Part shown: in pieces, positions 12,160-56,404 of the stretch | How the letters are laid out: every line of letters begins with the position of its first letter | How positions within the stretch are numbered: position 1 is the stretch's first letter | Source: an uncultured Planctomycetota bacterium | GTDB lineage: Bacteria; Planctomycetota; Planctomycetia; Isosphaerales; Isosphaeraceae | Direction: 5' to 3' | NCBI GenBank assembly: GCA_963737655.1 | Contig: CAVTTN010000002.1 | Location: forward strand, 1-64,000 | DNA length: 64,000 bases | Translations under genes and position numbers: made by a program | The notes under the pieces: generated by a model | The model's input: only the letters and a program-made list of their open reading frames with translations | What the model was told of the DNA's origin: nothing | Databases searched by the model: none

Positions 12160-14086
<1,927 letters not shown>

Positions 14087-14157
14087 GCCCGTCCCGGTCT
14101 CGGATCCGATGGGAGCGGCGACGGTCCGCCCCTGCCCCCTGCGGAGGCGACGTGATC

Positions 14158-14892
<735 letters not shown>

Positions 14893-31262: not shown

Positions 31263-31347
31263 ACTCTCGAGGTCGATAGATTTGGGTCATCTTTGCGATA
31301 TGTCAACGTAAATGTTTCCGGTTTGCTGGCGTTTCAGGCATCGCCAA

Positions 31348-34962: not shown

Positions 34963-35372
34963 ATAAGCAGATCCGTCTCTGATTGGATGCCGGTGCTAAA
35001 GGGCCGCAAAAGACCGGCCGCTCGAATAGCACCATGATGCAGGATGCGGAGGCAAATGACATCTCCGCCCGCGATCATCGATCTGTTCCGCGGAGCGAAC
35101 ATCCTTTGGGAGCCGAGGAGCTGGGGTCGAAAAGAGCGACGCCGCGCCCGCGAGCGCAGCCCAGTTCGTCCGATCGAAGATCGCGGCGGCCGGCAGCGCA
35201 AATCGGGAGTCGGCGCCCCCGAATCCGGAGTATGTGGACGTAATCGTAGCCGACCGTTGCTAAATCGATGCGAAAGTCGGGTCTTACCGGCCCAGACTCA
35301 CTCGAGAATATCCGCCTTGCCGTGTCCGGCGACCCGGCGCATAATCCTTCAACTTTCTTGAAGGATTATGCA

Positions 35373-35975: not shown

Positions 35976-36007
35976 GCTGAACGCGGACCGAAAAAGGCAA
36001 GGAAGCC

Positions 36008-36895
36008 ATGGCAAGACACTTCGGATCGGCGGCGGCCTTCAAGGCATCGCTCGAGGCCCACCTGCGAAAGCTGGCTGGCGAACGCACCACTCCATTGAGC
36101 ACGCTCCAGCTGAAGCTCGTCATCGAGAGGCTCCTCGCGCGGCTATTCCGGGAGCCGAATCCGCCTTGGCTCCTCAAAGGCGGTTTCGCGATGGATCTCC
36201 GGTTCCGGCCACGCGCGAGAACGACGAAGGACGTCGACATTTCGCTCGCGCTTGGGGCGGGAGACTCCGTCGAATTCTCGGCCGCATTCCGCGAGCAGCT
36301 CCAGGAGACCGTCGACTTCGAACTGGGCGACTATCTCACCTACCGCATCGGAAGTCCGAAGCGCGAACTCACCAACGCGCCGCGAGGCGGGGCGCGGTAT
36401 CCGTGCGAGGCGGTCCTCGTCGGCAAGACCTACGCCAAGTTCCACATCGATGTCGGTTGCGGCGATGTGCTCGTCGGCGAGCCCGAAAGGATCGTCGGCG
36501 ACGATCTCTTGTCGTTCGCCGGCATCCCCCCCGCCGAGGTTCTCGCGATCTCCAAGGCCCAACAGTTCGCCGAGAAGGTCCACGCCTACTCGTTCGCGTG
36601 GAAGGATCGCCTCAACACCCGGACCAAAGACCTCGTCGACCTCGTGCTCCTGATCGAGCGCGGTCTTCCCGACGTCGACCAGATACGAGCGGCCCTCGCT
36701 GTGACGTTTTCGTCGAGGGCGACGCACCCGATGCCGGCAGAGCTTGCGTCCCCTCCGACGGCTTGGGCGACGGATTTCCCCGCAATGGCGGCCGAGGCGG
36801 GGCTCTCGACGAGCGACTACCTCCAGGCGTTCGCGATTCTCGACGCATTCTGGACTGCGGGTTCGCTGTTCTCGACCAGCCCGCCGGCGGAGTAA
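36008..36895 (+). CDS. abiEii: AbiEii/AbiGii nucleotidyltransferase toxin
   Basis: LLKGG, RTTKDVD, AEKVHA, RTKDLVDL. Confidence 0.9.
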   Translation: MARHFGSAAAFKASLEAHLRKLAGERTTPLSTLQLKLVIERLLARLFREPNPPWLLKGGFAMDLRFRPRARTTKDVDISLALGAGDSVEFSAAFREQLQETVDFELGDYLTYRIGSPKRELTNAPRGGARYPCEAVLVGKTYAKFHIDVGCGDVLVGEPERIVGDDLLSFAGIPPAEVLAISKAQQFAEKVHAYSFAWKDRLNTRTKDLVDLVLLIERGLPDVDQIRAALAVTFSSRATHPMPAELASPPTAWATDFPAMAAEAGLSTSDYLQAFAILDAFWTAGSLFSTSPPAE

Positions 36896-37125: not shown

Positions 37126-37153
37126 CGCGGGTGCAATTCCCGCCGCCTCCACT
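37126..37153 (+). repeat. 28-bp duplicate of the ssrA 3' end (att core), inverted relative to ssrA
   Basis: CGCGGGTGCAATTCCCGCCGCCTCCACT is the exact reverse complement of 55720-55747. Confidence 0.92.
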
Positions 37154-38431
37154 CCTGACAATCGCTGTCAGGGGACGAAAAATGACGACAACCCCCGTCT
37201 TCGACGGGGGTTGCGTCGTTTACGGATTGGGCCTCGCCACTGCCAACGGATGCCCCGTCGTGACAGGATGGGACACCCGGAATACTCCCATTACGCTGCA
37301 ACCCGTCGGCGGTCGGGCCGGCTTCACCCCCACCCCCGCTTCTCTCCCCGGGGGGCGTCCAGGGGAGCTGGCTCAGGGCCTTCGCCTGGTCGTCGATCCC
37401 GATGTGGGTGTAGCGCATCGTCATGTTGACGTCGGAGTGCCGGGCGAGCTCGCGGGCCTCGGGGACGGTCGCGCCGTTGCGGAGCAGCTCCGTGATGTAG
37501 GTGTGCCGGCCCGCCGCGTGGAAGTCGGCGATCCCCTCCGCCGTCTCGTACGGGATGCCGGCCCGCTCCAGGTCCTTCCGGACCATCAGCCAGGTCTTCT
37601 TGCCGGCGAGCCCGGGGAACAGCGGCGCATCGGCCGGCAGGGCGGGCATCCACTCCCGGAGCATCCGGAGCAGCTCGGGGTGGACCGGCAGGATGTCCTC
37701 GCGGCGGTGCTTCGAGAACGCGGCCCGGACGGTGACCTTGGGCGGCTCGGACGCGAAGTCGAAGCTGCCCGGCGTCAGGCTCGACAGCTCGTTCTTGCGG
37801 AGGCCGGTGAGGTACGAGACGGCGTACAGCCGGGCCCGCTCCTCGCCGGAATACCCCTGGATCGGCCTCGAGCAGCCCCGTGCCGAGGCGATCAGCCTCG
37901 AAACCTCGTCGGCGGTGAGCGCCCGCCGCTTGTGCCGGACGTCGACCTCGGTGTTTAGCCTGGTGAGCGAGGCGACCGGGTTGTGGGGCAGCCGCTTGCT
38001 GGCGACGAGCCACTTGCCGAACTCGTCGATCGCCTGGACGTAGTGGTTGTACGTCTTGTTGCCGAGGTCCTCCTCCCTCGCCATCTTGCGGAGGAACCGC
38101 TCCACATCCTCGGCGTTCAGGTCGTCCAGGGTCCTGAATCCGCACCCCGAGACGACCCGTTCGATCCGGGTGGTGATGAGGCGGACGTGCTTCGGCGTGT
38201 TGTGCGCGAGGCTCATTAGGAAGGCCTTGACGTGGCCGGCGACGGCCGATCGCTTCCGCTCGACGAGCTGCTCCTGCGCGGGGTCGATCGAGCCCCCGTC
38301 TGCGGAGCATCGCCTCGTGCTCGAGCCGGGCGGCGAGCCGCTCGGTCTCGCCCCGGTCGGTGAACCCCTTGACGGTGCGTCGTGCCCCGTCGTGGTCGGT
38401 GTAGCCGATGTACCAGGGGGCCCCCTTCCTA

Positions 38432-39617
38432 GTGGTCTACCGCTGTAAAGGTTGTGGGTAGAGATGGGCGAGTTTCCGACGGGCGTCGGCCACACGGAAG
38501 CTCCACTCCAGCCTTACCCCGAGCCGATTCCGCTCCGTCTGCCACGTATCGACCTCCCTCGTCACGGACTCCTTGTCGGGCAGGCGGCGGTCGAGGCACT
38601 GCCGGGAGAGCACCGACAGCTCGCACTCCGCCATGTTCAGCCAGCTGGCGTGCTTGGGCGTGAAGTGGAACTCCAGGCGACGGGCCAGCCGCCACGCCTC
38701 ATCCGGCGGATAGGTGGCGAAGAGCGACCCGAGCGCATGAGTGTTCAAGTTGTCCAGCACTACCCGGATCACGTCCGCCTCCGGATACAACTCGTCGCAG
38801 AGGTGGCGCATCTGGGCGGCGAAGTCGGGGATCGCCCGGCGGTCCGTCACCGTGACATGACGCCGGCCAGCCAGGGGCTCGACGATCACGAACAGGTTGG
38901 CCGTGCCATGGCGGGTGTATTCGTAATCCTGCTTGGCTGGCGAGCCCGGCCGAGGCGGGATCGGCTCGGCGACATCGCCCCGCAGCTCCTTGCTCGCCTC
39001 GTCGAAGCAGACCACCGGCCGGGCCGAGTCGTGGGCCTCGGCATACAGCTCGAGCACGTCCTCCATGCGATGGATGAACTCCCCATCTACGCCCTTCGGC
39101 AGGCACCACGACTTCTTCTGCCACGGCTTGAGCTCGCTTTTTTTAGGACCCGCAGGATCGTGTCCTCGGAGACCGATTCGACAACCTGGAGCTCGACCAG
39201 GCGGTTGGCCAGCATGCGTGCGGTCCAGGTGGCCCGCCCCTCAGGCACCGGGTTGCATGCCATGGCGATGACGATCGCCTCGGCCTTGCCGTCGAGGAGG
39301 GGCTTGGCCCCGGGGCGTGGCCTCTCGTGGATCGCGGCGCCGAGCCCGCCGGCGGCGAACCGACGCCGGACGTTGGCGACGGTCCCGAGGGAGACACCGA
39401 CCCCCTCGACGATCTCCTCGTCGGTCTCGCCGGCATCGGTCCGGAGGAGGATCTGCGCCCGATTCCGCTGACGACGGGTCAGGGGACCGGCCTCCCACCG
39501 ATCGAGCCTCCATCCTCTGGTCATCTGTCAACTGAACCGCATGTCGCTTCGGCATGATCGGCCTCCTATGAGGCCATCTTACCGGAATGACCGTCAATCT
39601 CTACAGCGGGCAACCAC
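38432..39617 (-). mobile_element. IS630-family element inserted at a TA within int2
   Basis: CTAG context at both ends; imperfect IR GTGGT..CCGCTGTA; A7G slippery site near 39140; FDEA, LDNLNTH, ASWLNMAE. Confidence 0.9.
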
Positions 39618-39947
39618 TAGAGCGGTCGCTTTTCTGCTTGTAGATCGAGGCCATGACGCATCTCCCTGGGGAAGATCGGATTCTGGATCGCCGGGGTCGG
39701 CGGTACAAGAGCAATCCGACGGCCCGTGGAGAGCCGGATGCGGCCGGGGCCTGTGCCGGCGAAGACGCTGGTGCCGATACACAGTCCAACGCGCCGGGGG
39801 CGACCCACGGCAGTCCAGGCTCGGTCGATTCTGGGACTACGCGTCCCGACCCGGTTGGTGGCACACTTCCGGGTGGCCGTCCCACGAGTTGCGGCAAGAC
39901 CACGATTCTTGTAAACTAGTCGGATAAACTAGATTGGAGGGACGACC

Positions 39948-40193
39948 GTGGAATCCGTCGGGACTTTCGAGGCCAAGACGCACCTCACCCGCCTCCTGGA
40001 GCGGGTCGCGAAAGGCGAGCGGATCGTCATCACGAACCGGGGCAAGCCCGTCGCCATGCTCGTGCCCCCCGAGGTCGGCGATCGGGCCGATGTCGCGGAA
40101 GTCGGCCGGGCCATGCTGGCCTACCGCGACCAGGTGAAACGCGAGCTCGGCGGTTCTTTCCGCGACCTGGCGCACGAGGGCCATCGGCACTGA
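39948..40193 (+). CDS. Phd/YefM-family antitoxin
   Basis: GTFEAKTHLTRLLERV..GE.IVIT.RGKPVA. Confidence 0.9.
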   Translation: MESVGTFEAKTHLTRLLERVAKGERIVITNRGKPVAMLVPPEVGDRADVAEVGRAMLAYRDQVKRELGGSFRDLAHEGHRH

Positions 40194-40216
40194 TCGGGGT
40201 CCGATATTCGATGATC

Positions 40217-40645
40217 ATGCCTCACCCGCCCGACCGCTTCGTGCTGGACGGCTCGATCACCCTGGCCTGGCTCTTCCACGACGAGAAGGATCCTTACGCG
40301 GACGCGATCGTGGGCAAACTCCCGCGACTCGAGATGCTCGTGCCGAGGCTGTGGCACCTGGAGATCGCGAACGTCCTGCTCGTCGGCGAGCGCCGCGGCC
40401 GTTGCACCCAGGCGGACGTGACGACCTGGCTCTCGTTCCTCTCGGGGCTCCCGGTCGTCGTCGACCGCGACACCGAGGCGCGGGCGTGGTCCGACACCAT
40501 CCCCCTGGGGCGGCAGTACGGTCTGAGCGCCTACGACGCCGCCTACCTGGAGCTGGCGTTGCGCGAGGGCGTCCCGCTCGCCACCCTCGACGCGAGGCTC
40601 GAGGCCGCGGCGACGGCGGCCGGTGTGGCGATCTATCAACCGTGA
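40217..40645 (+). CDS. vapC: VapC PIN-domain toxin
   Basis: FVLDGS, EIANVL, LSAYDAAYLELA, LATLD. Confidence 0.9.
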   Translation: MPHPPDRFVLDGSITLAWLFHDEKDPYADAIVGKLPRLEMLVPRLWHLEIANVLLVGERRGRCTQADVTTWLSFLSGLPVVVDRDTEARAWSDTIPLGRQYGLSAYDAAYLELALREGVPLATLDARLEAAATAAGVAIYQP

Positions 40646-40881
40646 TCCGACGAACCGAAGTTGCAAGGGGGCAAGAGGTCGCGCGAACTCCCGCGGATGG
40701 CGTGGACGCAGATCCCTCGATTCAGGCCCGATGAGATCACGCGATGCTGACGACGATTTGCCGTGCACCATCTCCATCTTCGGCCGAATCGCGCGCCCGG
40801 GCGTTCACCGCATCCCGGGGGATGGCTTGAGGGTCCGCCGCCGGCGGGTGGACAAGTCGGATCACGCGCACCGTCTCGGGC

Positions 40882-41082
40882 TCAGTGGGACCCGGCCCCT
40901 CGCCCGCGGGCACCCCTGGACATCGCCTCCAGTTCCTCCCGCGCGACCCGGTAGAACTCCCGGTCGGCGTCGGCCCACTCCTCCTCGCGGAGCACCACCT
41001 GGATGATGGAGCGGCACCGCCGGGCGATCCGGATGGCCGCCTCGTGGGTGCGAGTGTCGGTCGGCTGGTTCTCGATGAACAT
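40882..41082 (-). CDS. Small conserved hypothetical protein (homolog of 52979-53161)
   Basis: MFIENQ...CRSIIQVVLREEEWADADREFYR; GAGG RBS. Confidence 0.75.
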   Translation of the reverse strand: MFIENQPTDTRTHEAAIRIARRCRSIIQVVLREEEWADADREFYRVAREELEAMSRGARGRGAGSH

Positions 41083-41090
41083 CGCGATCC

Positions 41091-41741
41091 TCACCCCCTG
41101 GCAACCGGGATCGTATCGATATGAATTGATGAAACTTCGCCAGTGAGCCAGACGTGGCCCGCCGTCGTGAGGAACTCGGCCCCGCCCCCGGCCGCTTCGG
41201 CGGAGCGCACCCGCAACACGATCCACGACCCGCCGGCCGCCCTCGCGACCCCCAGGGCATAACCGAGGTCCGACGTGAGGTGGACATAAGCCCGCCTCAT
41301 CGGGCGGAGCCCGTGCTCCCGGATCCGCCCTTCGCGGTCCGAGGACGTGCCGTGGAAGAGTCGGGCCGGCGGAGACGCCGGACGGGCCGCGACGACGCCG
41401 GGCAGGGAGTGCCCGTAGAGGGCCCGGATCTTCCCCGGGCGGATCTCGAACCGCCCCGAGTCCTGCGTCCGGACGAGGTCCTCGAGACACCGGACGTTGA
41501 CGGCCTGCAGACGCTGTCCCGCCCCCCGGACGGCCCGCGCCACGTCCCTGAGATTCGCCCAACCCTCCGCGTCGACCGCGACCCCCCGAGGGGGCCCGCC
41601 ATGCCGGAGCAGGAACGCCAGGACGCGGACCAGCGACGGACCTTCCTCTTCCAGCCCCATCGCGAACCCGGCGGTGTCCGAGGCGGCCTCGGCGAAGATG
41701 AGCGCCGCGCGTCTCCGCAGTTCATCGTCCTCGTTCGACAT
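41091..41741 (-). CDS. kptA: RNA 2'-phosphotransferase, Tpt1/KptA family
   Basis: LLRH, DAEGW, RFE, IRALYGHS, LFHGT, GLRPMRRAYVHLT. Confidence 0.85.
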   Translation of the reverse strand: MSNEDDELRRRAALIFAEAASDTAGFAMGLEEEGPSLVRVLAFLLRHGGPPRGVAVDAEGWANLRDVARAVRGAGQRLQAVNVRCLEDLVRTQDSGRFEIRPGKIRALYGHSLPGVVAARPASPPARLFHGTSSDREGRIREHGLRPMRRAYVHLTSDLGYALGVARAAGGSWIVLRVRSAEAAGGGAEFLTTAGHVWLTGEVSSIHIDTIPVARG

Positions 41742-41744
41742 CGG

Positions 41745-41975
41745 TCACCCCTTGGCGGCGCGGCCGGGGGTCGGGCACCCGGAGGCGACCCACGCCTCGA
41801 CGTCCGCACGCCGCCAGCGCGTGCTGCCGCCGAACTTGACCGGGGCCACGATCTTCCTCGTGCTGACCAGCCTCCAGAGGGTCCGCGTCGAGATGTCCAG
41901 CATCCCGGCGACCTCGTCGGCCGAGATCAGCAGCGGGGCGGGCGGCGCCCCCACTCCCCTCTCAGTCGCTCCCAT
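41745..41975 (-). CDS. AlpA/excisionase-like HTH protein (element 2)
   Basis: LISADEVAGMLDISTRTLWRL...STRWRRADVEAW. Confidence 0.85.
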   Translation of the reverse strand: MGATERGVGAPPAPLLISADEVAGMLDISTRTLWRLVSTRKIVAPVKFGGSTRWRRADVEAWVASGCPTPGRAAKG

Positions 41976-42221
41976 CGTCTGCCTCCGTCCCCGGCCCGGC
42001 GACCTGCCTCGATGCAGGTTCTCCGGTCAATCTTCCCGGCCCGGGGAGGGCTGAGGACAGTTCAGGCTCGGTTCATCCTGGAGAGATTTGAATGGAATTA
42101 GCCCCGATCCCTGCCGGGAACGACGAGGTCGGGTTGGCGTCATCAACAGCAAGTGCGGCTCGGCCAGAAGGTCCGCAGGTCGTCGCGTCTGCGCCTCGAC
42201 ACGCCAGAATGTCAGTAATTG

Positions 42222-42854: not shown

Positions 42855-45047
42855 GTAGCCGTTCCCGGCGCGGGTTGCTTGGTCACGTCCGCGCGATTAT
42901 AACGGCGGCATGGACCGGCCGACCTCGATCCCTCAGCACGTCTGGGACAGCCTTTCGGATGAAGCCCGTGTGGTCATCGGCTCCGTCGTCGAGGGATTGG
43001 AACGACGGGTCGCCGAGTTGGAACAGCACGTCCGGGATCTGATGGCCCGCCTAGAACAGGATTCCACCAACAGCTCCAGGCCGCCGTCGTCCGACCCGAT
43101 CGGCGTCAAGCGGAAGCCACCTGCGCCGCCGTCGAGGGAGCGCCGGGGCGGGCAGAAGGCCCATCCGCGTCGGTTGAGGGCCCTGGTGCCGCCCGAGCGC
43201 GTCGCCTCGGTCACCGACTGTAAGCCGACGGAATGCCGGCGCTGTCGACGCCCGTTGAGCGGGGTGGACGCCCAACCCCGGCGCCACCAGGTGGCCGAAC
43301 TGCCGCCGATCGAGCCGGAGGTGCATGAGTGCCGGCTCCATCGCCTCGGTTGCCCCCACTGCAGGACGGTCACCTGCGGGACGCTGCCCGATGGCGTGCC
43401 CCGCACGTCGTTCGGGCCCCGTTTGCACGCGGCCCTCGGCGTGTTGACCGGGGCGTACCGGCTGAGCAAGCGGCAGGTCGTGCAGCTCGGCTCCGACCTC
43501 CTGGGCCTGACGATCTCCGTCGGAATGATCTCCAAGCTGGAGCGGATCACGGCGGAGGTGCTGGAGCAACCGGCGGCCGAGTTGGCCGAGGCGGTGAAGG
43601 CGGCCCAGGCGGCGAACATCGACGAGACGGGCTGGCGGGAGGCGCACCTCAAGGCCTGGCTCTGGGTCGTGGTGACCTCGGTGGGGGTCGTCTTCCGCAT
43701 CGCCCGCTCGCGGGCCGGGGCGGTGGCCGCGGACCTGCTCGGTGAGGAGCCGAAGCCGATCGTCATCAGCGACCGCTGCCCCGGCTACGAGTGGATCAAG
43801 CTGAAGTCGAGGCAAGTTTGCTGGGCCCACCTGCGTCGCGATTTCCAGGCGATGATCGACCGCGATGGCGACGGCGCCGAGGTCGGACGGCAACTGCTCT
43901 GGCAGTCGAACGAGCTGTTCGAATCCTGGCACAAGGTCCGCGACGGCACCATCCAACGATCGACGTTCCATCAATACCTCGCGTGGCTGCGGCCGATGGT
44001 CCGTTCGAGCCTGGGGCGCGGGTCTCGATGTGCCTGTCCGAAGACGGCGGCGACGTGCGGCGAGTTGCTGCGCCTGTGGGATTGCCTGTGGACCTTCACC
44101 CAGGTCGACGGCGTCGAGCCGACGAACAACGCGGCGGAGCGAGCGTTGCGGCACGCCGTGATCTGGCGGCGGATCAGCGGTGGGACTGACAGCGAAGGCG
44201 GGAGCAGGTTCGTGGAGCGGATGCTGTCGGTGGTGGCCACCTGCCGGCTGCAGAAGCGTAGCGTGCTGGAGTACTTGACGCGGTGTCATCAAGCCTATCG
44301 TCACGCCCAACACGTCCCCTCCCTTTTGTCGCCGGCCGCGTCCCTGACTCGCGCCGGGTGATCGTATCCGCTCGCCCTCTCGACGGAGACTCAATGTCGT
44401 GGGGCCACTTCCGCTGTGTCGTTCGGCAACGTCGAATCAGCTGTAATCCTCCCGCGAGCAACGCATTTGTTGCCCTCGTACAGTTCGAACTCCCTGCCCT
44501 CACGAAGTGAGTCGTGCGGTGCCTCGTCAAAGAGGTAATGAACGTCGGCGACCCACCGAAACTCCGTGCTGAGTGATTCACGCTTGACGATGACTAACGA
44601 CCAGGACGCACCTGCCGGGGGCCAAGGATCGTCGAGGAACCGCACTTCGGTGGCATATGCAGGAATTCCGACTCCGAGAGGGGGCCTGGAACGCCCGCCA
44701 TCAGCCTTTGGAATCCAGTCCACTACCGCACACTTCGTGACCATTTCGATGACTCCAAGGGGCGTGGTTTGAGCGGCGGCAAGTCATCGTTATGGAGATA
44801 ACGCGCCGGGCGATGACCGTCGAGATTCGGACGAGTAGAGAGACTCGGAGCGTTGTTCGGGACGTCAACTTCGATGAGTTTATACTTCCCGTCGGGGAAC
44901 AAGGGACGTGTCCTGCTATTCCCTAGGGCGTGGGACTTGGCGCCTTCGAGGGAGTCGGCAAACCATTTCCCTTCGAGCGAGTTGGGGCCTTGTCGAAGTT
45001 GGCCGGTCTTGAGTATGTCCTGATACTCCGCCTCACTTACCGCACGG
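42855..45047 (+). mobile_element. IS66-family element copy B (direct repeat of 23917-26109), right end deleted
   Basis: Identical transposase (42910-44361) and 117-aa passenger (44391-44744); cut by the IS starting at 45048. Confidence 0.9.
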
Positions 45048-46948: not shown

Positions 46949-47708
46949 TTACGAAACCATCTTCGGGACAGGTCGCCTCCTGGCTGCCCTGGCGGTTGGG
47001 ATTCCCGCTCTCACCGCCCAGATTTTCCCCGGCCCGATGACAGAGCAGGAAAAGGCGCTCAAGCGGCTGGCGGAGAACCTGCACCGTAAGAACTACACCG
47101 GCTATGAGCAGGTGGTGCGCATCACCGAGCTGGCGGAGCTGACGGGCAAGCAGGGCAAGGATCTGGCCGAAGCGCTCAACTGCGATCCGTCGTGGGTGTC
47201 GCGCATGCGGTCAGTGGCGAAGCTCCGGCCCGAATGGCTGGAGGCGTTGCGGGCCGAGCAGGTGACGATTTCCGACTGCTCCGAGGCCAACAAGCTCAGC
47301 ATCGACGATCAGGTGATCCTGCTGGAGTCGAAGCTTTCCGGCCATGCCATCGGACGCGAGGGAATGAAGGCCGCCGCACAGAAGCTACGGCAGGGCGGAG
47401 GCAAGTCGGCTAATTCAACGCCGCCCGAGCGCAGCAACCGCGTCAAAATCCCGCTCGCCATGACTTTGAAGGAACCGGACGCAGCCGGGAAGGTCACAGA
47501 GGTGAATATCCGGGGCATCGTCACCGTGGCCAGCCATCCGGGTGAGGAGGTTGACTTGGAAGGCTCGGAAACGCTGCTGCATGAAGCGTTGCGGGCCGTG
47601 CGCGCCGCACGGACACGAGGGCTCGGCCTCAAGGCCGCGCAAGCTTCCTGGAAAGATATGGCGGCAATGAAGGCGAAGACCGCGCCCGCTCCGCCCGCCG
47701 CGGACTGA
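46949..47708 (+). pseudogene. ParB/Spo0J-like protein, 5' end truncated by IS
   Basis: YETIFGTGRLLAA...LAENLHRKN...HTH GKDLAEALNCDPSWVSR. Confidence 0.7.
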
Positions 47709-48088: not shown

Positions 48089-49701
48089 CAGTAGTTTCCC
48101 TGGAAATCGACACTCTCGTCGCGACGTCGCGTAGCATCTCCGTCCCCTCGACGCCGCCGAGCGGCTCCCGAGGCCCTGAAAACCAGGCGTCCGACACCTT
48201 GAGTGCGTCGGATCCATCTGCGATACTTCATCGCGGCCTACACTCAGGCCACTTTCTCCTCGTGTTTCAGCCAGTTCGAGAGGAGACGCTGGATTTCCGG
48301 CCGATGACGCCTCAGCAACCGCTCCACGTCCAGCACGCTCGCTCGGTCCTTCTTCTTGTTCCACGGCGGCGGCGACCACCAATCCGTGCATCCTCGCTCA
48401 TCCAACGCGAATTGCAACAGCCGCAGCAGGCTCATAGTGATCCATTGCACCTGCGTCGTCCGCTCGATCGGCGACTTCGTCCAGGCTCGACACTCCTCCC
48501 ATCCCAGCCTCTGCTTCAGGTCCCGGAACCCGTCCTCCTGGCGGAACCTCGCGGCGAACAACTCGACCATCTCCAACCCGCTCAGACCCAACGCCGAACT
48601 CACCACCGTGAATCGCTTCTGGTAACCCTCGACCTCGGCCACCACCGCCTTGACCGTCACGTCATGTCCGAGCACCCGCCAGAGGCAGGCGATCTCCTTC
48701 CAACGGACCTTTCGCACCCGGCCGTAGATAAAGGCCTCGCCCTTCTTCCAATCCCCGGGCCAGCGTCCCCCCTGGCGAGGCGGGGACAGCTTCTTGCCCC
48801 ACACGGGAGTCCGGCCTCGTTTCCCCTTGGGTCGCTTGGCCGGCGGCAGGGCGTGGAGTCGGGCGTCGTGCCGCAACCGGGTCAGGAAGTCGATGCGAGG
48901 CAAGCCCTCTTCGGCCATGACCAGTGGCCGAACGACATTCTTCAGGGCGTAGCCGCCGTCGAAGACGCCCAGGTGAGGCCCGGCGTTGATCCGGGCCTGT
49001 TCCCGCAGCAGTTCGACGGCCAGTTCGCACTTGGTCCGGAAGACCTGCTTGGGGCCGGCGACGCCACAGCGGAAGGGGAGTTGCGACTTGCGGAAGTAGA
49101 GCCGCCCGGAGATCGGCAGATACCAGGCGGGCTGGCCATCGTTCTTGAGCAAGGCCCCGAGGCAGACCCAGTTGTGAGCCCGGACGGTGGTGGCCCGGTT
49201 GGGACAGCGAGCGGTGTATTCGTGGAAGGTGCATGTGCCCCAGACGTGCTCGCCCGAGCGATGGACCTTGGTGTCATCGACGGCCGAGATCCGATAGCCG
49301 TGCCAGATCCGGCCGGGAGCCTCGTCGATGAGTCCGGAGAGGTTGCTGGTGAGGATCTCGGGCTTCCAGACGGCGTACTCGGCGAAGGATTCCAGGGCCT
49401 TCCAGTCGGCCAGTCGCTCGATGGCGACGACCGACTGGGTGATGGTGTGCTCCTCGACGTTGAGGGATAGAGCGGTGACCCACTCGACGAAGCGGCGGTA
49501 GCCGGGTCGAGTGAATGCGGAGGCGAAGGGTTTGAGGAGTAGTTGCCAGAGGGACCAGACGACTGTAGCCTGCCGCATCGGGGCATCTCCGTTTGCGGAG
49601 TTGATGGGAGGGTAAGCACCCATCAAGGTCCGCTGGGGAGATGCCCCGCTCAAGATATACGGAACTTCAGATCGGTTGCTCGATTTTCAGGGAAACTACT
49701 G
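48089..49701 (-). mobile_element. IS4/IS701-superfamily element, copy 2 (inverted relative to copy 1)
   Basis: Same TIRs and identical transposase; 6-bp TSD ACTAAG. Confidence 0.92.
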
Positions 49702-49822
49702 ACTAAGGGCGCTCCATCGGTTTCGACTTTTCTACGCTCCACCGATTTCACAGCACCCCGTTCGCACGGGATTCAACGACCAAACTAAATCACAGTTCCA
49801 CCCTTCGCACAAGGACATTTCG

Positions 49823-50131
49823 ATGCTCAAGAATTTCAGCGAGTCCCTGAGGAACACGATCCAGCTCATCACCAGCCTCGTCCAGCTCGGCATCCTGCTG
49901 GCCGTAATCGGCGGCGGCTGGTGGGTCTACGACAAGATCAGCAACATCGGCAAGCACATGCCGAGCCTTCCCAGCATGGCCGACATCGTGCCGCCGAAGA
50001 TCGAGGTGAAGGTGCCGGACGTGAAGCTGCCCGACATCAACATGACCGACCTCACCGTGCCCGAGATGCTGTTCGGTCGGAAACAAAGGCCGGTGGATAA
50101 CGGGCACTTATGGCAGTTTGATGAACCTTGA
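49823..50131 (+). CDS. Hypothetical single-TM protein
   Basis: AAGGA RBS, TM helix, Pro-rich VKVPD/VKLPD repeats. Confidence 0.6.
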   Translation: MLKNFSESLRNTIQLITSLVQLGILLAVIGGGWWVYDKISNIGKHMPSLPSMADIVPPKIEVKVPDVKLPDINMTDLTVPEMLFGRKQRPVDNGHLWQFDEP

Positions 50132-50254
50132 CTTGGAAAGAAAGCGGTATTGCAGAGAACACGGCTGCCTTTCGAGCGAGCACAATCACTCTCCCGGCGT
50201 CGATGGTGGAATCCTTCGAGGCGCGCGAGCGATGGCAAAGTTGATGGGACGCCT

Positions 50255-51767
50255 ATGACAACCATCGCCGTCGGCCTCATCCTCGGGGTGCTGTTCTGGC
50301 TGCTCAGGCAGCGCGAGCGGCGAACAGCGCCCCCAATGTCACCCAAAGACCCACTCGATTCACCCTTGATGTTCTGGTCGCCCAAAGACCCATTGACACA
50401 ACGCGATTTGTTTAGGTCGGTATGCGTTATGGGTTCATCAGGCTCAGGGAAAACATCGGGCGTCGGTTTCCAACTCGGCAAGGCGCTGGCGCGCGCGAAA
50501 AACTGTCGATGCTCATCTTCGCATCGAAACCGGAGGACCGCAAATTTTGGCAAAGCATCGCCGGGGCCGCCGGGAAGGAGCTAATCACGTTCGCGCCCGG
50601 CGAGCCGCACCGCTTCAACTTCATGGATTTCGAGTCGAGGCATGCCAATGTTTCAGCGCGGGAACTGACACAAAGCATCCTTATCGCGGCGGAAACGCTG
50701 ACAAAATCGGAGGGCGGCACTACAGAAAGTTTCTGGAAGATCAACAAGGCCCGCGTGCTGCAAAACGGCATCGAGCCGCTGTTGCAAGCCTACGGCAAAC
50801 TCGACCTGTACGACTTGCAGCGGTTCATCACCGACGCGGCGAAATCGCTGGATCAGTTCGCCTCGGAGCAATGGAAGGCCGGATACCACCACGAAGCCAT
50901 GGGCAAGGCTTATGAGAATTGCAACAAGCGAAAAGTGGAGGGCAAAGCAGGTGTGGGAATAGCCGCACACGATCTGGATGTAGCATTTGAATTCTGGGGC
51001 GAATGGGCGGCGATGAATGATCGCACCCGCTCGTCAATCCTGGCCGACGTGATGGCCACGCTGTTCGTCTATAACACTGGCGAAGTGAAGGAGATGATCG
51101 GCACCAGAACGACGATCAGCCCGGACATATTCGAGCAGGGGCCTGGCTGTTTGTGGATTATCCCGTTGCCAACTTCGGGGCGGCTGGTTCCTTCATCATG
51201 GGCGCATGGAAGCTCTCCGCTCAGAAATACATCCTGCGCAGAGCGGCCACGGAAACGACGCCGACGCTGGTGATCTGGGCTGATGAATACCAAAACGTCA
51301 TGTCCAGCTTCGATGCCCCTTTCCTCGCGGAATGCCGCTCGCACCGTGCAGCGATGGTCGTACTGACGCAATCCATCCACAGCTTCTTTTCATCCATCGG
51401 TGGTAAGGAGGCGCACAGCCAAACCAAGGCCCTGCTGACGAATTTCGGCACCAAAATCTTCACGGCGCTGGGGGACGAGGAATCGGCCAAATTCGCCAGC
51501 TCGCACATCAGCCGCACGATCATCCGGCTGGCCAGCTCATCGCGGTCAGGCGCGGCCAAAATGTTCAACGAGTTCTCCGGCAATTACAACCTCAGCACCT
51601 CGCTGAGTGAGTCCGTCAGCGAGAGGCTATTGCCGGGGCTTTTCATGAACGGGCACAAGACAGGCGGCCCGGAAAACGGCTGCATCGTCACCGCCTGGGT
51701 CATCAGGAACGGCGAAAGTTTCTCCAACGGGGAAAACGCCATGCTGGTTGGATTCTCACAGAAATGA
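50255..51767 (+). pseudogene. VirD4/TraD-like type IV coupling protein with two frameshifts
   Basis: N-terminal TM, Walker A GSSGSGKT, Walker B IWADEYQ, VVLTQS, LLTNFGTKIF, spread over three frames. Confidence 0.8.
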
Positions 51768-51814
51768 CCATATCGGTGGCTTCACCGAAATGGTTTCCAT
51801 CAAGAGGAGCAACT

Positions 51815-52381
51815 ATGTCAGAAGGCTATGAACAGCAGCCGAAACCCTCGCTGCGGGAAATCGCCGCCAACACGATGCTGGTGAGGCACACCATCGTCAC
51901 CGTCCACAAGCTCTGCCTCGCCGTCTTCATGCGGCGCGGCTTCGGAACCAAGGCGTTCGACCCCTACGGGTTCTTCGCCCTCGTCGTGCTCATCGGCCTA
52001 TCGGCGGCTTACCCGGTGCTTTACACCTTCATGGTGGTCTGGTTCTTCACCCTCGTCGCGCAGCGCATCGACACCTTCCGGCTTTACCTCAAGGGCTATC
52101 GCGGGCATAGCCGCTATCACGGCTTTCCGTGGCTGGCCGGGCTCATGCCCAACGTCAAAACGCCGGAGCAGGCACTCAGGTTCGAGCCGTTCATGTGCCT
52201 GTTCGTCGGGCTTTTCATCGCCACATTCAGCGCGCCGCTGGGCGTCTTCGTCATGGCCGGGTTCGTTTCATTCCCCGTCAGCATGGCAATTGAGGAAATC
52301 TCGCTTCGCCGCGAGGTGCAGGAGATGAACGATTCGGAGATTGAGATGGAAAACATCTCCGAGCGTTTCCGGCGGCAGTGA
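51815..52381 (+). CDS. Hypothetical multi-TM protein
   Basis: GAGGAG RBS; four hydrophobic segments; HSRYHGFPW. Confidence 0.7.
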   Translation: MSEGYEQQPKPSLREIAANTMLVRHTIVTVHKLCLAVFMRRGFGTKAFDPYGFFALVVLIGLSAAYPVLYTFMVVWFFTLVAQRIDTFRLYLKGYRGHSRYHGFPWLAGLMPNVKTPEQALRFEPFMCLFVGLFIATFSAPLGVFVMAGFVSFPVSMAIEEISLRREVQEMNDSEIEMENISERFRRQ

Positions 52382-52469
52382 TGGCAGCAGGGGCAGGAAT
52401 CGAACCTGCGACCCGCCCGGAAACGGACGAACCGCACTTCCGGGCTGCTCTCCCCTGAGCTACGCCGCC
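52382..52469 (-). ncRNA. tRNA-like RNA whose anticodon loop is replaced by an extended hairpin
   Basis: GGCGGCG-TA-GCTC AGGGGA GAGC-A-GCCCG [21 nt] CGGGC-GGGTC-GCAGG TTCGATT CCTGC-CCCTGCT-G-CCA. Confidence 0.7.
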
Positions 52470-52515
52470 ACGGATTTCAGACCACGTTTCTCTACCTCAG
52501 TCAAGGAGTTTCACA

Positions 52516-52989
52516 GTGGCAAAAGAACCCACGTCGATGATCGGGCACCTGCACAGCGCGGTGCAGCGGAGCGGGCGCGCCGTCTTCATGAACCCCGTTA
52601 CCAGATTCATCGGGCGCACCGTCGTCGAGATGGGCGAAAGGCTCATCCCGCACGGGGCAAACGAGCTTGGCAATGCCATCTACACCGGCAGCGCCTACGC
52701 ACCCCCCGTCCTCCACACCCCGGATCAGGGCAATGTCCACGGCACGGGCGCGGCACAGAAGAAGGAGGAACCCGCGCCGAAAGTCGAGCAGGTCTCTTCG
52801 CCCCAACCGGCCAGCGGGTGGGGGTATCAAGCGCCCATGGGGTTCAGGGAGGTCGGATACCGCGACAACGCCAAGATCGTTGACATGCAGCCGCAACTCG
52901 AAGGAGCCAAACAAGATTACAACGCTCGCCTCGAAGCGGCGGCGGCGCGGGCACCCAAGAGTGACAAGGGACAAGACCATGTTCGTTGA
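52516..52989 (+). CDS. Hypothetical protein
   Basis: AAGGAG RBS with GTG start; overlaps the next ORF. Confidence 0.6.
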   Translation: MAKEPTSMIGHLHSAVQRSGRAVFMNPVTRFIGRTVVEMGERLIPHGANELGNAIYTGSAYAPPVLHTPDQGNVHGTGAAQKKEEPAPKVEQVSSPQPASGWGYQAPMGFREVGYRDNAKIVDMQPQLEGAKQDYNARLEAAAARAPKSDKGQDHVR

Positions 52990-53161
52990 TTCGCAAGCGG
53001 CTGATCCGGCCATCCACCGGATCGCGATCACCATCGCTCTCCAGTGTCGGCATATCATCCAGGGATGCTTGCGCGAAGAAGAATGGCATGACGCCGACTT
53101 GGCCTTTTACCGAATCGTTCGCGAGGCGCTCGAAAAACCCAAACGTCAGGAGGAGGTCTGA
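52979..53161 (+). CDS. Small conserved hypothetical protein (homolog of 40882-41082)
   Basis: MFVDSQ...CRHIIQGCLREEEWHDADLAFYR. Confidence 0.75.
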   Translation: MFVDSQAADPAIHRIAITIALQCRHIIQGCLREEEWHDADLAFYRIVREALEKPKRQEEV

Positions 53162-53163
53162 AC

Positions 53164-53325
53164 ATGCTGCTCGTAGAACTGCGAGACGAAGACGGGTTCG
53201 ACGACCACGATCGGGCACGGGCTTCGGACATGGAGGAAAGCCGCCCGATTTACCCGCGCATCTTCCTCGCCGAAGAAGAAGCGCCGGACCACGAAGAGGT
53301 ACAACCCGACGAACCGGAGGCGTGA
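53164..53325 (+). CDS. Small acidic hypothetical protein
   Basis: GGAGG RBS; tightly packed in the operon; 53 aa. Confidence 0.45.
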   Translation: MLLVELRDEDGFDDHDRARASDMEESRPIYPRIFLAEEEAPDHEEVQPDEPEA

Positions 53326-53327
53326 TC

Positions 53328-53654
53328 ATGGAAGATGAAAAACCCTTGTCCCCGGCGACGCAGAAAGCAGTCTTCGCCGAGATTCGGGCCGACGAACACG
53401 CCGCCCGCGTCCGTGACTTCGGAGAGGCCGACGCTGCAACCTACGACGCCAGGATGGCGGAGGCCTACCGCTTTCGAGCCGAGGCATTGGGCCCTGAGCC
53501 GCCCAACCCACCACCGGTCACTCCGGCGGAACTCGAGCGGGCGGTGGCTGAAATCGAACGCCAATGGCAGCAGCCATCCTCCTACGACCAGCGGCTTGCT
53601 GAAGCCGCCGCACGGATGCCAAACAAACCCAAGGACATCGACAGGGCCCGATGA
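53328..53654 (+). CDS. Hypothetical protein
   Basis: GGAGG RBS; MEDEKPLSP...KDIDRAR. Confidence 0.55.
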   Translation: MEDEKPLSPATQKAVFAEIRADEHAARVRDFGEADAATYDARMAEAYRFRAEALGPEPPNPPPVTPAELERAVAEIERQWQQPSSYDQRLAEAAARMPNKPKDIDRAR

Positions 53655-53831
53655 CGCGCCAGAGGCAAGAGCGACGCGCCCCTGCCGCGATCATCCTGTC
53701 GTTGCTGGGGGGAAAAGTTGACCTGCCGAAAATGAACGGCAAGCAAAGCGGCTCGCCCGGCAGCGTGCTGGGTGGGCCGGGCGGCGGGAGACGGCGGAGA
53801 CGCGACACCGAGGAGAAGGAGGTTACGTGAG

Positions 53832-54026
53832 ATGAGCATCGATGCGGCACCAAAGCTGATCAATGCGGAAGAACTGGCCCAAATGCTCGACGTTTCCGAA
53901 CGGACGCTCTGGCGGCTGCTCTCCGGTCACAAACTGCCCGAGCCGGTCCGCATCGGCCGCAACACGCGCTGGCGGTTGGCCGAGGTCACCGACTGGATCG
54001 AGCGGGGGTGCCCGATTGGAAAATAG
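53832..54026 (+). CDS. AlpA/excisionase-like HTH protein (element 1)
   Basis: LINAEELAQMLDVSERTLWRL...NTRWRLAEVTDWI. Confidence 0.88.
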   Translation: MSIDAAPKLINAEELAQMLDVSERTLWRLLSGHKLPEPVRIGRNTRWRLAEVTDWIERGCPIGK

Positions 54027-54061
54027 CGATTGCGCGACAACGGGTGATGGCAGGATGCTGA

Positions 54062-54244
54062 TTAGCGGGCCAGGGACTTTCCTGTCAGACCTGGCAAAGA
54101 CGGGGCTGCGATGTCGCCGCACTCGGCCAGGGCGATGCCCGTGGTCAGGTCGTCGCGTGCGTGCTGCTCCCATGCGACGAGCGCCTTTGCCTTTCCTTGG
54201 GCGAGGCGCGCCCTCATGGCGTCCATTTTTTCGTCGATACTCAT
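54062..54244 (-). CDS. Small hypothetical protein
   Basis: 60-aa ORF between alpA and int. Confidence 0.35.
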   Translation of the reverse strand: MSIDEKMDAMRARLAQGKAKALVAWEQHARDDLTTGIALAECGDIAAPSLPGLTGKSLAR

Positions 54245-54421
54245 GGCTGGATTATCGCATAAAAGAAGCCCTTGCGCAACGAGGCAGCAAGGGGCGACGA
54301 TGACTAGGCTGAACCTAGCCAGCGATGAAGCCCTGAAGCTCGCCAGCTGACCCACCTGGCGCGCTCCGCCTCCTGAACGTATAATCACCGAACCGACCCC
54401 GACACACCCGGAGCCATCCCC

Positions 54422-55891
54422 ATGGCCTCGATCTACAAGAGATGCCGCGACAAGAAAAAGAAGAACGTCCCCTACCAGATCGAATACCTCGACGTAGACG
54501 GCGAGCGTAAGGTCGTCAAGGGGTTCACCGACAAGGGCCTCACTGAGCAACTGGCCGCGAAGCTGGAGAACGAAGTCCTCCTACGGAAGCGGGGGATGAT
54601 CGACCCGCTGGCCGAGCAACTCGCCGTCCGTAGACAGTCGCTGGTCGGCGACTCCCTCGACGCATTCCGCCGGAGCATGGACAACACGACCCCGAAGCAC
54701 CAGCAGCTCACCATGACGAGGGTGACTCGGCTGGTGGAGGCATCCGGGGCCAAAACGCTCGCCGATCTCGACGCCGAAAAGGTCGAGAACTGCCTGAAGG
54801 AACTCCGCCGGGCCGATGACCTCGGCGCCCGGACGTACAACCACTACCTCCAGGCGATCGACGAATTCGGGAAATGGCTCGTGTCGAGCAAGCGGCTGAC
54901 GATCAACCCGGTGGCGGGCATCGAGCGGCTGAACGCGGAGACGGACATCCGCCATCCTCGCCGTGCGCTCACGACGGAGGAAGTCTCCAAACTCGTCGAG
55001 TCGGCCAGGTCGAGCGGCGTCGAGGTCCAGGGCTACGACGGAGAGCTTCGGGCTCGGGCGTACCTGATGAGCTTCTTCACCGGCCTGCGGCGGCAGGAGC
55101 TGGGGAGTCTCACGCCCCGGTCATTCAAGCTCGACGACGCCCAGCCGACCCTCAAGGTCAAGGCGGCCTGCTCGAAGCACCGGCGGGAGGACACCCTGCC
55201 GATGCACGCGGAGCTGGTCCTCCTGGTGCGTGAGTGGGTGCGTGTTCTTGGTCCGAAAGATCTTCTCTTCCCCCGGATCGAGAAGAAGAAGACCTGGCTG
55301 ATGGTGAAGAAGGACCTGGAGCGGGTCGGCATCCCCTACGAGACGCACGAGGGCATCGCCGACTTCCATGCTGCAGGCCGGCACTCGCATATCACCGGAC
55401 TGCTCAGGAACGGCGCCACGTTGGTCGAGGCCCGCGAATTGGCCAGGCACTCCGACGTCAGGATGACGATGAAATACACCCACATCGGCCTTCAGGATCA
55501 GGCCGACGCCCTGGCAGGTCTGCCAAACCCAAACGCATATACAACCGCTAATTGGCTGGGTATTGGCTGGGTTTCGGGCGGCGCTCAGGGGCAGGAGGTG
55601 ACGCCGAGTGTCAGCGATCCTGACCAGAACACTCAGTCTACAAACGAACAAACCCCGGCGGAGCCGGGGCTTGTGTCGTCTTCTGTCGCAAGTTGTCACC
55701 AGATGGCAACTTACAGCGAAGTGGAGGCGGCGGGAATTGCACCCGCGTCCCGAGATTCATCGACGAGGGCATCTACGTGCGTATCCGGTCGTTTGATTGT
55801 CGGCCTGGTCCCCCCGATCGGCAGGGTGGACTGTGGCTTAGCTCCTCATGAGATTCGTCCGTGCCTCAAGGTGCGGCTTGGCAGGGACTAG
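54422..55891 (+). CDS. Tyrosine integrase of element 1; the ORF reads through att into antisense ssrA
   Basis: TGLRRQEL, DFHAAGRHS, LARHSDVRMTMKYTH; adjacent to the ssrA 3' end. Confidence 0.93.
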   Translation: MASIYKRCRDKKKKNVPYQIEYLDVDGERKVVKGFTDKGLTEQLAAKLENEVLLRKRGMIDPLAEQLAVRRQSLVGDSLDAFRRSMDNTTPKHQQLTMTRVTRLVEASGAKTLADLDAEKVENCLKELRRADDLGARTYNHYLQAIDEFGKWLVSSKRLTINPVAGIERLNAETDIRHPRRALTTEEVSKLVESARSSGVEVQGYDGELRARAYLMSFFTGLRRQELGSLTPRSFKLDDAQPTLKVKAACSKHRREDTLPMHAELVLLVREWVRVLGPKDLLFPRIEKKKTWLMVKKDLERVGIPYETHEGIADFHAAGRHSHITGLLRNGATLVEARELARHSDVRMTMKYTHIGLQDQADALAGLPNPNAYTTANWLGIGWVSGGAQGQEVTPSVSDPDQNTQSTNEQTPAEPGLVSSSVASCHQMATYSEVEAAGIAPASRDSSTRASTCVSGRLIVGLVPPIGRVDCGLAPHEIRPCLKVRLGRD

Positions 55892-56086
55892 CCCGCATTG
55901 GCGTCACCGGGCGGCCCTAGCGGGCGAAGGGACGCCGCGATGCCGTGCGCTGGTGTTTAGGCAGCGAGACGGAGAGAGGGAGTCCTCTCGGCAGATAGTG
56001 TTTGGTCGGCTTTTAACGAGGCCTGCTGACCAACCTCGGCACGCAGCCACACGCGTCAGCAATCCGGTCGATCCTGGTTCGCCCCC
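55722..56086 (-). ncRNA. ssrA: tmRNA; tag peptide (A)AERTPSLRLAA at 55957-55992
   Basis: 5' GGGGGCG and 3' CGCCTCCA acceptor stem with G3:U; T-arm; internal ORF ending LAA-stop; 365 nt. Confidence 0.93.
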
Positions 56087-56404
56087 GGGTTCTTGAGTAT
56101 TCCGGACGAAGGCTGTTAAGATTGTACCTGCCCGCTCCGCCCGATCAAGGTGGTCTCCAGGATTGCGTCTCTCGACGGCCTCGCGAATCCTCTCCGAGGA
56201 TGGATCGGAAGCCCTCTTGGCTAGTGGTTGAGCCCGGAAGTTCTTTGGAGTAATTTCGGCTGCCCTCCTCTCGGAGGGCCTTGATTTCGGCCTATTTTGA
56301 GAGTCTAGCAGCCGGGTTTACTACCCAGAATTTGAGAGTCTGACCACGAGGCGGCGATTCCCGCCCTGTTCTCTTCCTGACGGCGTCTCCTTGTTCCTCT
56401 TAGA

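Follow-up and report, generated by a model that had tools for sequence, protein, structure and literature searches.

A tRNA-shaped gene with a sealed anticodon arm in the core operon of a planctomycete tmRNA-integrated island

The window, i.e., the whole 64,000-nt stretch of planctomycete DNA that was analyzed, carries on its minus strand an 88-nt gene for a tRNA-shaped RNA. The gene appears to derive from a tRNA-Asn(GUU) gene, the anticodon loop of which is closed by pairing with inserted bases in the predicted fold. It lies antisense in an insertion between two core genes of an island integrated at ssrA, the tmRNA gene, and near-identical islands carry other contents at this place. We tentatively favor, with somewhat less than even confidence, the reading that the RNA is a swappable, non-decoding tRNA mimic that would act as a decoy.

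The tRNA-shaped gene and its anticodon arm

The cloverleaf is real. ARAGORN labels the segment tRNA-Leu(aag), and the tRNA model RF00005 of Rfam matches 52385-52469 with 39.5 bits (gathering threshold, 29; E value over the window, 7.5e-5). Both programs, which had been proposed as checks in a preliminary description of this DNA, thus call a tRNA. The gene and its parts are as follows.

52382-52469, minus strand: tRNA-shaped RNA gene, probably derived from tRNA-Asn(GUU), anticodon sealed in the predicted fold (ARAGORN; Rfam, 39.5 bits; isotype ranking)
52463-52469, minus strand: 5' strand of the acceptor stem, pairing with 52386-52392 (two G.U pairs and one C-C mismatch)
52447-52460, minus strand: D arm with a 4-bp stem and a short 6-nt loop containing GG (fold and Rfam alignment)
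52415-52445, minus strand: extended anticodon arm with an 8-bp helix, a 2-nt bulge, a 4-bp helix and a 5-nt loop (fold, z-score -4.45)
52427-52440, minus strand: putative 14-nt insert pairing with the old anticodon loop (boundaries inferred by counting from the 3' stem; pairing from the fold)
52420-52426, minus strand: vestigial anticodon loop with GUU at 34-36 (sequence and fold; register one of two possible)
52393-52414, minus strand: 5-nt variable loop and canonical T arm (Rfam alignment)

Every structural element that the preliminary description had assigned to an 88-nt minus-strand cloverleaf is found in the sequence at its place, i.e., U8-A9, a D arm with GCTC/GAGC, an anticodon stem with GCCCG/CGGGC, the variable loop GGGTC, the T arm GCAGG-TTCGATT-CCTGC and an encoded 3' CCA, which adjoins the TGA of the upstream gene at 52379-52381. 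Likewise, the two G:U pairs and the mismatch in the acceptor are seen in the Rfam alignment, which gives a 7-bp acceptor, a 4-bp D stem, a 5-nt variable loop, a perfect T arm and a 5-bp anticodon stem enclosing 21 nt where 7 are expected. All features of a canonical body are present (7/5 acceptor/T stems, U8, A14, GG in the D loop and a UUCRA T loop), and the canonical anticodon loop with seven unpaired nucleotides, U33 and a purine at 37 is absent. Besides tRNA, no Rfam family came near its threshold.

The 88-nt gene has a folding z-score of -3.43. In the lowest-energy fold of the window copy, the acceptor is slipped by three bases and the CC of CCA is paired, a register that is 11.4 kcal/mol more stable than the canonical one (-49.2 vs. 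-37.8 kcal/mol), and the D arm is lost once the flanks are included in the fold. Since tRNAs are often misfolded by such thermodynamic models, the slipped fold is a caution rather than a refutation. The gene is single-copy in the host genome. Its best match there is to the T arm of tRNA-Arg(UCU), at 24 of 25 nt, and a search of the genome for an identical host tRNA found none; thus, the gene is not a copy of a host tRNA. An encoded CCA was found in only one of the 40 other host tRNA genes scored. Another irregular arm in this host belongs to a gene called tRNA-Ile(tat) by ARAGORN (6624238-6624310), which is located in a translation-gene cluster and may overlap a ribosomal-protein leader.

The 21 nt that stand in place of the 7-nt loop do extend the stem, with GAAG/TTTC followed by CGG-TTCGT-CCG, as had been described from the sequence and as also seen in the fold. 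The 31-nt arm alone has a folding z-score of -4.45, and the first 14 of the 21 nt are predicted to pair with all of the last seven. Counted back from the T arm, these last seven put GUU at positions 34-36, which would occur by chance once in 64 cases at even base use, while one phage alignment permits a register that is one position off. This vestigial loop no longer has U33 and R37. Since the 14-nt insert leaves none of the seven bases of the former anticodon loop unpaired, the sealed RNA should be unable to decode. Thus, the earlier label of an anticodon-less RNA is apt for a non-decoding tRNA body but not for its origin, as the Asn anticodon is still in register, albeit paired.

Several comparisons point to tRNA-Asn(GUU) as the source. 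Among 155 class-I tRNAs compared, a planctomycete tRNA-Asn matches the core best (score 77, the next being 68.5), although other tRNA-Asn genes fare worse, with a mean of 47.9. Of the 15 best phage matches, nine are annotated as tRNA-Asn; several of them are duplicates or near kin, and none covers 80% of the query. The acceptor resembles that of Met/fMet more than that of bacterial Asn. A similarity to the 5' half of fMet, which is out of register, was set aside, as tRNA-Asn explains the same bases.

With GUU still in register, the gene might encode a tRNA-Asn with an intron, the splicing of which would yield a functional tRNA. Unexplained inserts in phage tRNAs are on record in the available part of one report (PMC6784885), and a gene for Tpt1/KptA lies 11 kb away. 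Yet, none of the eight possible contiguous 14-nt removals from the 21 nt, examined by hand, gives a loop with U33; hence, the insert is not an intron in the usual sense. Moreover, the insert of a second allele, X4, described below, comprises only 5 nt and is located at the other side of the loop, and the KptA gene sits in a neighboring element. An intron is therefore scarcely credible and is the least probable of the explanations considered here.

The carrier island and the insertion slot

The gene lies within a plus-strand run of genes for a ParB-like protein, a small ORF, a coupling protein, a hydrophobic protein, three to four small ORFs, an excisionase and an integrase, which converges on ssrA. 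The features of the island, with those of the slot, are listed here.

35268-36895, plus strand: AbiEi/AbiEii pair adjoining the att copy, AbiEii at 36008-36895 (Pfam)
37126-37153, plus strand: 28 nt that repeat the ssrA 3' end in inverted orientation, beside a second integrase
47037-47708, plus strand: ParB-like gene (partial), first of the family core (TIGR00180 below cut-off here, above it in locus L158)
50150-51767, plus strand: VirD4/TraD-like coupling protein, in three reading frames in the assembly (Pfam; NCBIfam weak; tblastn frames)
51815-52381, plus strand: upstream gene of the slot, conserved hypothetical hydrophobic protein, island core (matches in 57 of 401 genomes of the class, its own included)
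52382-52386, plus strand: left TGGCA repeat, the tRNA 3' end read backwards, equal to the ancestral stop/start junction
52499-52508, both strands: TTGACT hexamer (minus) overlapping the AAGGAG ribosome-binding motif of the downstream gene (plus), no -10 box
52516-52989, plus strand: downstream gene of the slot, hypothetical protein (N-terminus 56% identical to the product of the gene abutting the stop in L158)
52517-52521, plus strand: right TGGCA repeat, where the downstream gene now starts; it bounds the 135-bp insertion
53772-54026, plus strand: excisionase-like HTH_17 (Pfam)
54422-55891, plus strand: tyrosine integrase converging on the ssrA 3' end (Pfam, NCBIfam)
55719-56086, minus strand: tmRNA gene, the integration target (ARAGORN, Rfam; L158, L159 and L177 likewise end at tmRNA)

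Both marks of a tmRNA-integrating island are found, i.e., an integrase beside the ssrA 3' end and a duplicated, inverted ssrA 3' end of 28 nt, and the placement of the gene in an ssrA-integrated element is thereby borne out. No relaxase was found among the window ORFs scanned. The VirD4-like gene occupies three frames here vs. one ORF of ~480-580 aa in most homologs, which reflects either a pseudogene or assembly indels. The inverted copy of the ssrA end implies an inversion. An inversion between two IS701-type copies was considered as the cause of this orientation and dropped, since the right copy lies between two syntenic core genes and has CTAA on both sides.

Other mobile DNA lies around the island. 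A second element with an ssrA-type integrase occupies 37126-42100 on the minus strand and includes the inverted 28-nt copy; its integrase is interrupted by an IS630-type transposase gene, an excisionase is present, and it holds a Tpt1/KptA RNA 2'-phosphotransferase (41091-41741) and a Phd/PIN pair. Defense cargo is found at 30792-36895 (a Mrr-type nuclease, a McrBC-like pair and AbiEi/AbiEii), and the AbiEi/AbiEii pair is possibly distal cargo of the ssrA island. Further along, a segment of 2193 bp with an IS66 transposase and a further ORF is duplicated with 100% identity as a direct repeat (23917-26109 and 42855-45047), a Tn3 transposon with resolvase is located at ~26.9-30.8 kb, and an ECF sigma factor with DUF6768 at 21.1-22.1 kb.

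The carrier family is widespread in planctomycetes, with ParB, a VirD4-like protein, the hydrophobic protein, xis and an integrase, and with many tRNA targets. The hydrophobic protein falls into unnamed Atlas clusters that are commonest in Planctomycetota. The family was studied in 88 regions of 4-20 kb around homologs, 77 of which cover the core well, with kin among them that are not independent; one unreadable locus, one duplicate and two phylum-level matches were left out. Many of these loci are bounded by a tRNA or tmRNA gene of the opposite strand; in L158, L159 and L177, the boundary is tmRNA, and the genes follow one another in the order of the window.

The tRNA-like gene is, as judged from these relatives, an accessory insertion and not a conserved part of the island. 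It lies antisense in an insertion of 135 bp, and the flanking genes abut in the closest relative (locus L018, the same as L158; 43% identity), where stop and start overlap. In this relative, the TGA is followed by the same six bases as in the window, and there they form the start of the next gene; in the window, TGGCA recurs 135 bp downstream, at the present start codon. Since the junction in L018/L158 has these same six bases, the CCA, G73 and the two bases before it may have been supplied by the target of the insertion, which weakens G73 as evidence for the isotype. Capture by short homology with a duplication of five bases would be the simplest route. Among the first 29 loci, 28 lack a tRNA after the stop and one is unreadable there, and the next gene starts within a short spacer in most of them. 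Altogether, a tRNA body was found at the homologous slot in none of the 74 loci with a readable downstream region. The preliminary description had itself named the lack of homologs at the syntenic position as evidence against its reading, and this is what is seen in all 74. Nor does the CCA, which, with the elbow and the arm, it had taken as a hint of selection, carry that weight: it is absent from the X4 allele, and it equals the ancestral start-codon sequence read backwards.

Other tRNA-shaped genes were detected in three of the 88 related islands by a scan for cloverleaf bodies, further high-scoring bodies, which lie outside the core, at the integrase end or past it, being judged targets or chromosomal. 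In L158, a tRNA-Met(CAT) that looks intact immediately follows the TGA of the ParB gene, at the same TGA-TGG junction (Rfam, 54.5 bits). In L175, an aberrant tRNA gene begins 3 nt downstream of the ParB stop (35.1 bits). In L229, an fMet-type body at oriented ~2837-2913 has an 8-nt anticodon loop, an encoded CCA and well-spaced promoter-like hexamers, and it heads a divergent cargo operon. Thus, the anticodon arm is abnormal in two of the three. A T-arm-like relic in L159 passed neither Rfam nor the body scan and was discarded. All three genes are oriented opposite to the core operon; since the integrity of the operon would force both this orientation and the position next to a stop, neither is evidence of an antisense function.

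Other unusual tRNA genes were encountered on the way. Near a family element, L191 (oriented ~13300-15100) holds an array of at least 12 of them. Pirellula-type prophage-like integrase elements (L054:2994-3087, L073 and L108) carry two tandem tRNA-like genes downstream of a gene for an HTH repressor, one of which has an extended hairpin arm, variable between the three copies.

One could regard the gene as a spare attachment site, a landing pad that collects further elements by means of integrases that target tRNA 3' ends. It is on the same strand as the target gene of the island, att fragments of tRNA-fMet are similar to its T arm and 3' end, and the island family targets many tRNA genes. Integration at the tRNA-like 3' end would, however, split the core operon, no host tRNA is identical to the gene, and none of the four island-borne tRNA-like genes contains an inserted element. 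This explanation is very improbable.

Searches for the arm itself gave nothing closer. A DNA search of 60 relatives yielded only T-arm matches of ordinary tRNAs. Protein-based locus searches found one weak archaeal match, none in viral contigs and otherwise only the window's own protein, and a search of plasmids found no match. Patterns of the flanks occur in no metagenome or viral contig and in two genome loci, and the 3'-end pattern occurs in no viral contig and in 29 genome loci, mostly 3' halves of tRNA-fMet with two whole fMet genes. Arm-specific patterns had no match in metagenome contigs and seven in viral sequences, none of which is a tRNA on inspection. An extended-arm pattern was present in five of 121 and five of 252 genomes of two families, the own genome included; by eye, none shares the arm. 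Thus, no homolog of the extended arm was found in the genome, viral, metagenome and plasmid collections searched. A generic pattern for tRNA bodies (D arm, 26-45 nt, T arm) yielded 21 genome loci and 87 viral stretches, none of which shares the arm of the window. Half of the distinct viral sequences (33 of 66) keep the anticodon-stem base, and nearly all of these also the acceptor, without a canonical loop at either side; half of the distinct genome sequences (10 of 20) look like ordinary tRNAs with an intron at 37/38 in archaeal records. Non-decoding tRNA bodies of a similar kind thus appear to be common in viral contigs.

Alleles of the slot and possible functions of the RNA

Contigs from four public sequencing runs, out of 19 that hold the sequence in part, were compared with 51800-53000 of the window. 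None of the runs listed as holding it was of RNA, which has no bearing on expression. The X1 contig (depth 2) differs at 10 positions in 580 nt at the left and 16 in 409 nt at the right; in between, 52385-52501 (117 nt) is replaced by 116 other letters, with the TGG and the AAGGAG side kept. The X4 contig (depth 3.6) extends across the slot; it has 29 substitutions, of which 26 are listed, and six missing bases. Within the 88 nt there are 18 of these substitutions and all six gaps vs. at most 11 differences in ~240 flanking nt. The differences cluster between the D loop and the arm, which points to a block exchange more than to gradual change. The X2 contig did not reach the slot, and all that X3 yielded was a match of 36 nt from a gene of high abundance, the loose end of which reads as an ordinary Asn anticodon arm. 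Contigs with a depth below 5 may carry errors, but errors are unlikely to account for the tRNA features of X4, since they would not restore the tRNA consensus at several places. These low-depth contigs show the slot to be exchangeable, with three different contents in three near-identical islands.

The two tRNA-shaped alleles have much in common. In X4, as worked out by hand, Watson-Crick pairs take the place of the C-C mismatch and of the terminal G.U of the acceptor, and both the D loop (8 nt) and the T loop are canonical. The D stem, T stem, U8-A9 and variable loop are unchanged among the listed differences, the conserved elbow bases are all intact in both alleles, and the CCA of the window copy reads CAA. 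By comparison, the window copy looks partly drifted. The arm of X4 comprises 23 nt, with an intact Asn loop followed by 5 nt that pair with it (by hand); thus, the anticodon is sealed by a 14-nt insert 5' of the loop in the window vs. a 5-nt insert 3' of the loop in X4. When the arms are aligned from the base, each has eight pair positions; both bases differ at three of them and a single base at one, and one does not pair in X4. Instead of compensatory evolution, the double differences may stem from two independent acquisitions.

A plainer account is possible, even if we do not consider it probable. A small inverted duplication in the anticodon hairpin may have disabled a captured tRNA-Asn gene, which would now be decaying without function as a neutral passenger, occasionally overwritten by recombination with other tRNA-like sequences. 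Such decay explains the absence of a tRNA from the slot in 74 of 74 loci, the missing promoter (see below) and the poorer state of the window copy, which has a worse acceptor and D loop than X4 and prefers the slipped fold. The constraints of the operon alone would give the orientation and position, X4 outside the D-loop/arm block is as divergent as the flanks (four differences in ~47 nt, no fewer than there), and the island looks damaged, with IS insertions and the coupling-protein gene in three frames. It explains less well that two different, separate inserts both seal the anticodon and both give a helix of eight pairs. Nor would one expect from decay that all conserved elbow bases are intact in both alleles, that the differences of X4 lie in one block instead of being scattered, and that two of the three other island-borne tRNA genes have abnormal anticodon arms as well.

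A regulatory role was weighed too. Regulatory RNAs like P4 CI have complementary target sites elsewhere in their element, and an elbow lacking an anticodon suffices for RNase P. The elbow might direct RNase P and RNase Z cuts in an antisense transcript that tunes xis and int and pairs with the intergenic part of the operon mRNA, as for tRNA-Other of Bacillus cereus or, loosely, P4 CI. By its position, the tRNA-like RNA is fully complementary to the operon mRNA. The TTGACT hexamer at 52499-52504, taken earlier for a -35-like box, is present, but it has no -10 partner, and a scan of 49700-56400 for sigma-70-type promoters found only ssrA's own. Moreover, a terminator-like hairpin follows ssrA at 55674-55648. 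Complementary ten-mer targets in 37-56 kb number 10 vs. a shuffled mean of 7.2 and a maximum of 23, and this lack of excess speaks against the P4 CI-like regulator that had been proposed. Most members of the family do without a tRNA-like gene, and Rfam gave no weighty match other than tRNA. There is a precedent in a pseudo-tRNA that is part of a larger regulatory RNA, according to the available text on it (PMC3399842). Overall, a processing signal or antisense regulator is improbable.

The decoy reading, to which we return, would run as follows. A gene of the tRNA-Asn(GUU) type was captured at a stop/start junction of the core operon, probably by way of the few bases that the tRNA end (G73-CCA) shares with the junction, in antisense orientation upstream of the next ribosome-binding site, the one placement that would leave the operon intact. 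A later insert, as suggested by the sequence and the predicted fold, paired up the anticodon loop. A synthetase that recognizes its tRNA by GUU should charge an RNA without an accessible GUU poorly. The sealed RNA would therefore be unable to decode and poorly charged, with its D/T elbow kept. As an accessory, uncharged mimic, it could bind and distract proteins that recognize the elbow or the acceptor, e.g., enzymes of host defense or toxins, and anticodon nucleases could not easily cut it. In the accessible part of one report, nucleotides are added to the CCA ends of tRNAs by AbiEii homologs, and a decoy role is suggested for phage tRNAs (PMC7725324).

The toxin genes said to share the island are present, i.e., AbiEii and a PIN/VapC-type gene (40211-40645), but the VapC pair lies in the second integrase element. 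Queries with the island's AbiEii and PIN found no homologs in the 88 loci over 8-10 kb, so the toxin linkage behind the decoy idea does not recur near other tRNA-bearing elements. Thus, what endures of the preliminary description is a non-decoding tRNA body in an ssrA-integrated element, while selection on the CCA, syntenic conservation, a promoter, an excess of targets and the link with toxins found no support. A broader version of the decoy reading holds that the planctomycete island family keeps an exchangeable tRNA-shaped slot, in which captured tRNAs are repeatedly sealed and alleles are swapped as in conflict cassettes, and that the RNAs are uncharged decoys against tRNA-targeting defense or toxin enzymes. 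In this generality, we consider it doubtful.

Comparison with known systems

The locus offers a natural allelic series (empty, two sealed forms and one replacement) in nearly identical backbones, beside which lies a candidate CCA-modifying toxin, and this makes the decoy idea directly testable. It also illustrates a possible route of origin, i.e., capture at a stop/start junction followed by sealing of a still-recognizable anticodon, and it shows how annotation tools miscall non-decoding tRNA look-alikes in mobile DNA, here as a tRNA-Leu. If the RNA is not expressed, the locus is an instructive pseudogene; if the decoy-slot reading is true, tRNA mimicry extends from phages to conjugation-linked islands.

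Y RNAs of the YrlA type have a circularly permuted tRNA domain, with the T arm before the D arm, and a neighboring Ro60/TROVE gene. In the window gene, the D arm precedes the T arm, and Rfam gave no YrlA row at E up to 10 (one lower-scoring clan overlap omitted), which excludes this identity; no Ro60/TROVE gene was found among 62 chosen window ORFs scanned with Pfam. Canonical class I tRNA-Asn(GUU) genes, as in the Pseudomonas phage LUZ100, Rhizobium phage B1VFA and locus L218, which were among the phage and planctomycete comparisons, align with it in the D arm, anticodon-stem base, variable loop, T arm, G73 and CCA. Unlike these, it has 14 extra bases that pair with the loop, lacks U33 and R37, has a Met-like, mismatched acceptor and lies antisense inside an operon. 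The "tRNA-Asn + intron" of Curtobacterium phage Sunfish (L298:95-187) folds as one long sealed anticodon hairpin, like the window gene.

Allo-tRNAs and irregular tRNAs are likewise odd tRNA-shaped genes of soil-type bacteria, and some irregular tRNAs are, in the part of the report at hand, apparently inactive in translation and located near transposon or toxin-antitoxin genes (Mukai et al., PMC5389517). As far as that part goes, allo-tRNAs have 8/4 or 9/3 acceptor/T stems (PMC5389517), whereas the window gene has 7/5 and a 5-nt variable loop; the 7/5 stems in the Rfam alignment rule out an allo-tRNA. The "enigmatic intron" tRNAs of Lak phages also combine a tRNA body with an insert in the anticodon arm, but their inserts are, in the available account, typically identical across cohorts (PMC6784885), whereas that of the window differs between near-identical islands. 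Furthermore, its removal restores no loop, and the carrier is an integrative island and not a phage. The attR tRNA fragments of integrative elements, as presented in the portion of the paper available, are also tRNA-like, located in mobile DNA and miscalled as tRNA (PMC9897764). The window gene differs in being full-length, internal and no copy of a host tRNA end, and on these grounds, with no identical host tRNA, an attR or attL fragment was rejected.

Closest, by the accessible sections of its description, comes tRNA-Other of B. cereus, which is also non-translating and tied to a genomic island, and for which recruitment to a different function has been proposed (PMC3399842). It flanks its island and is expressed within larger RNAs, whereas the window gene is internal, has an extended arm and is known from its sequence. 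In its working, the tRNA-like gene may come nearest to pseudo-tRNAs and irregular tRNAs of mobile DNA, insofar as the available part of the literature on them allows the comparison (PMC3399842). Searches of the open-access literature turned up no description of the island family or of anticodon-sealed derivatives of tRNA-Asn. Within that literature, three things are new: the island as carrier, an Asn anticodon that can still be traced and is sealed in two ways, and a slot with exchangeable contents.
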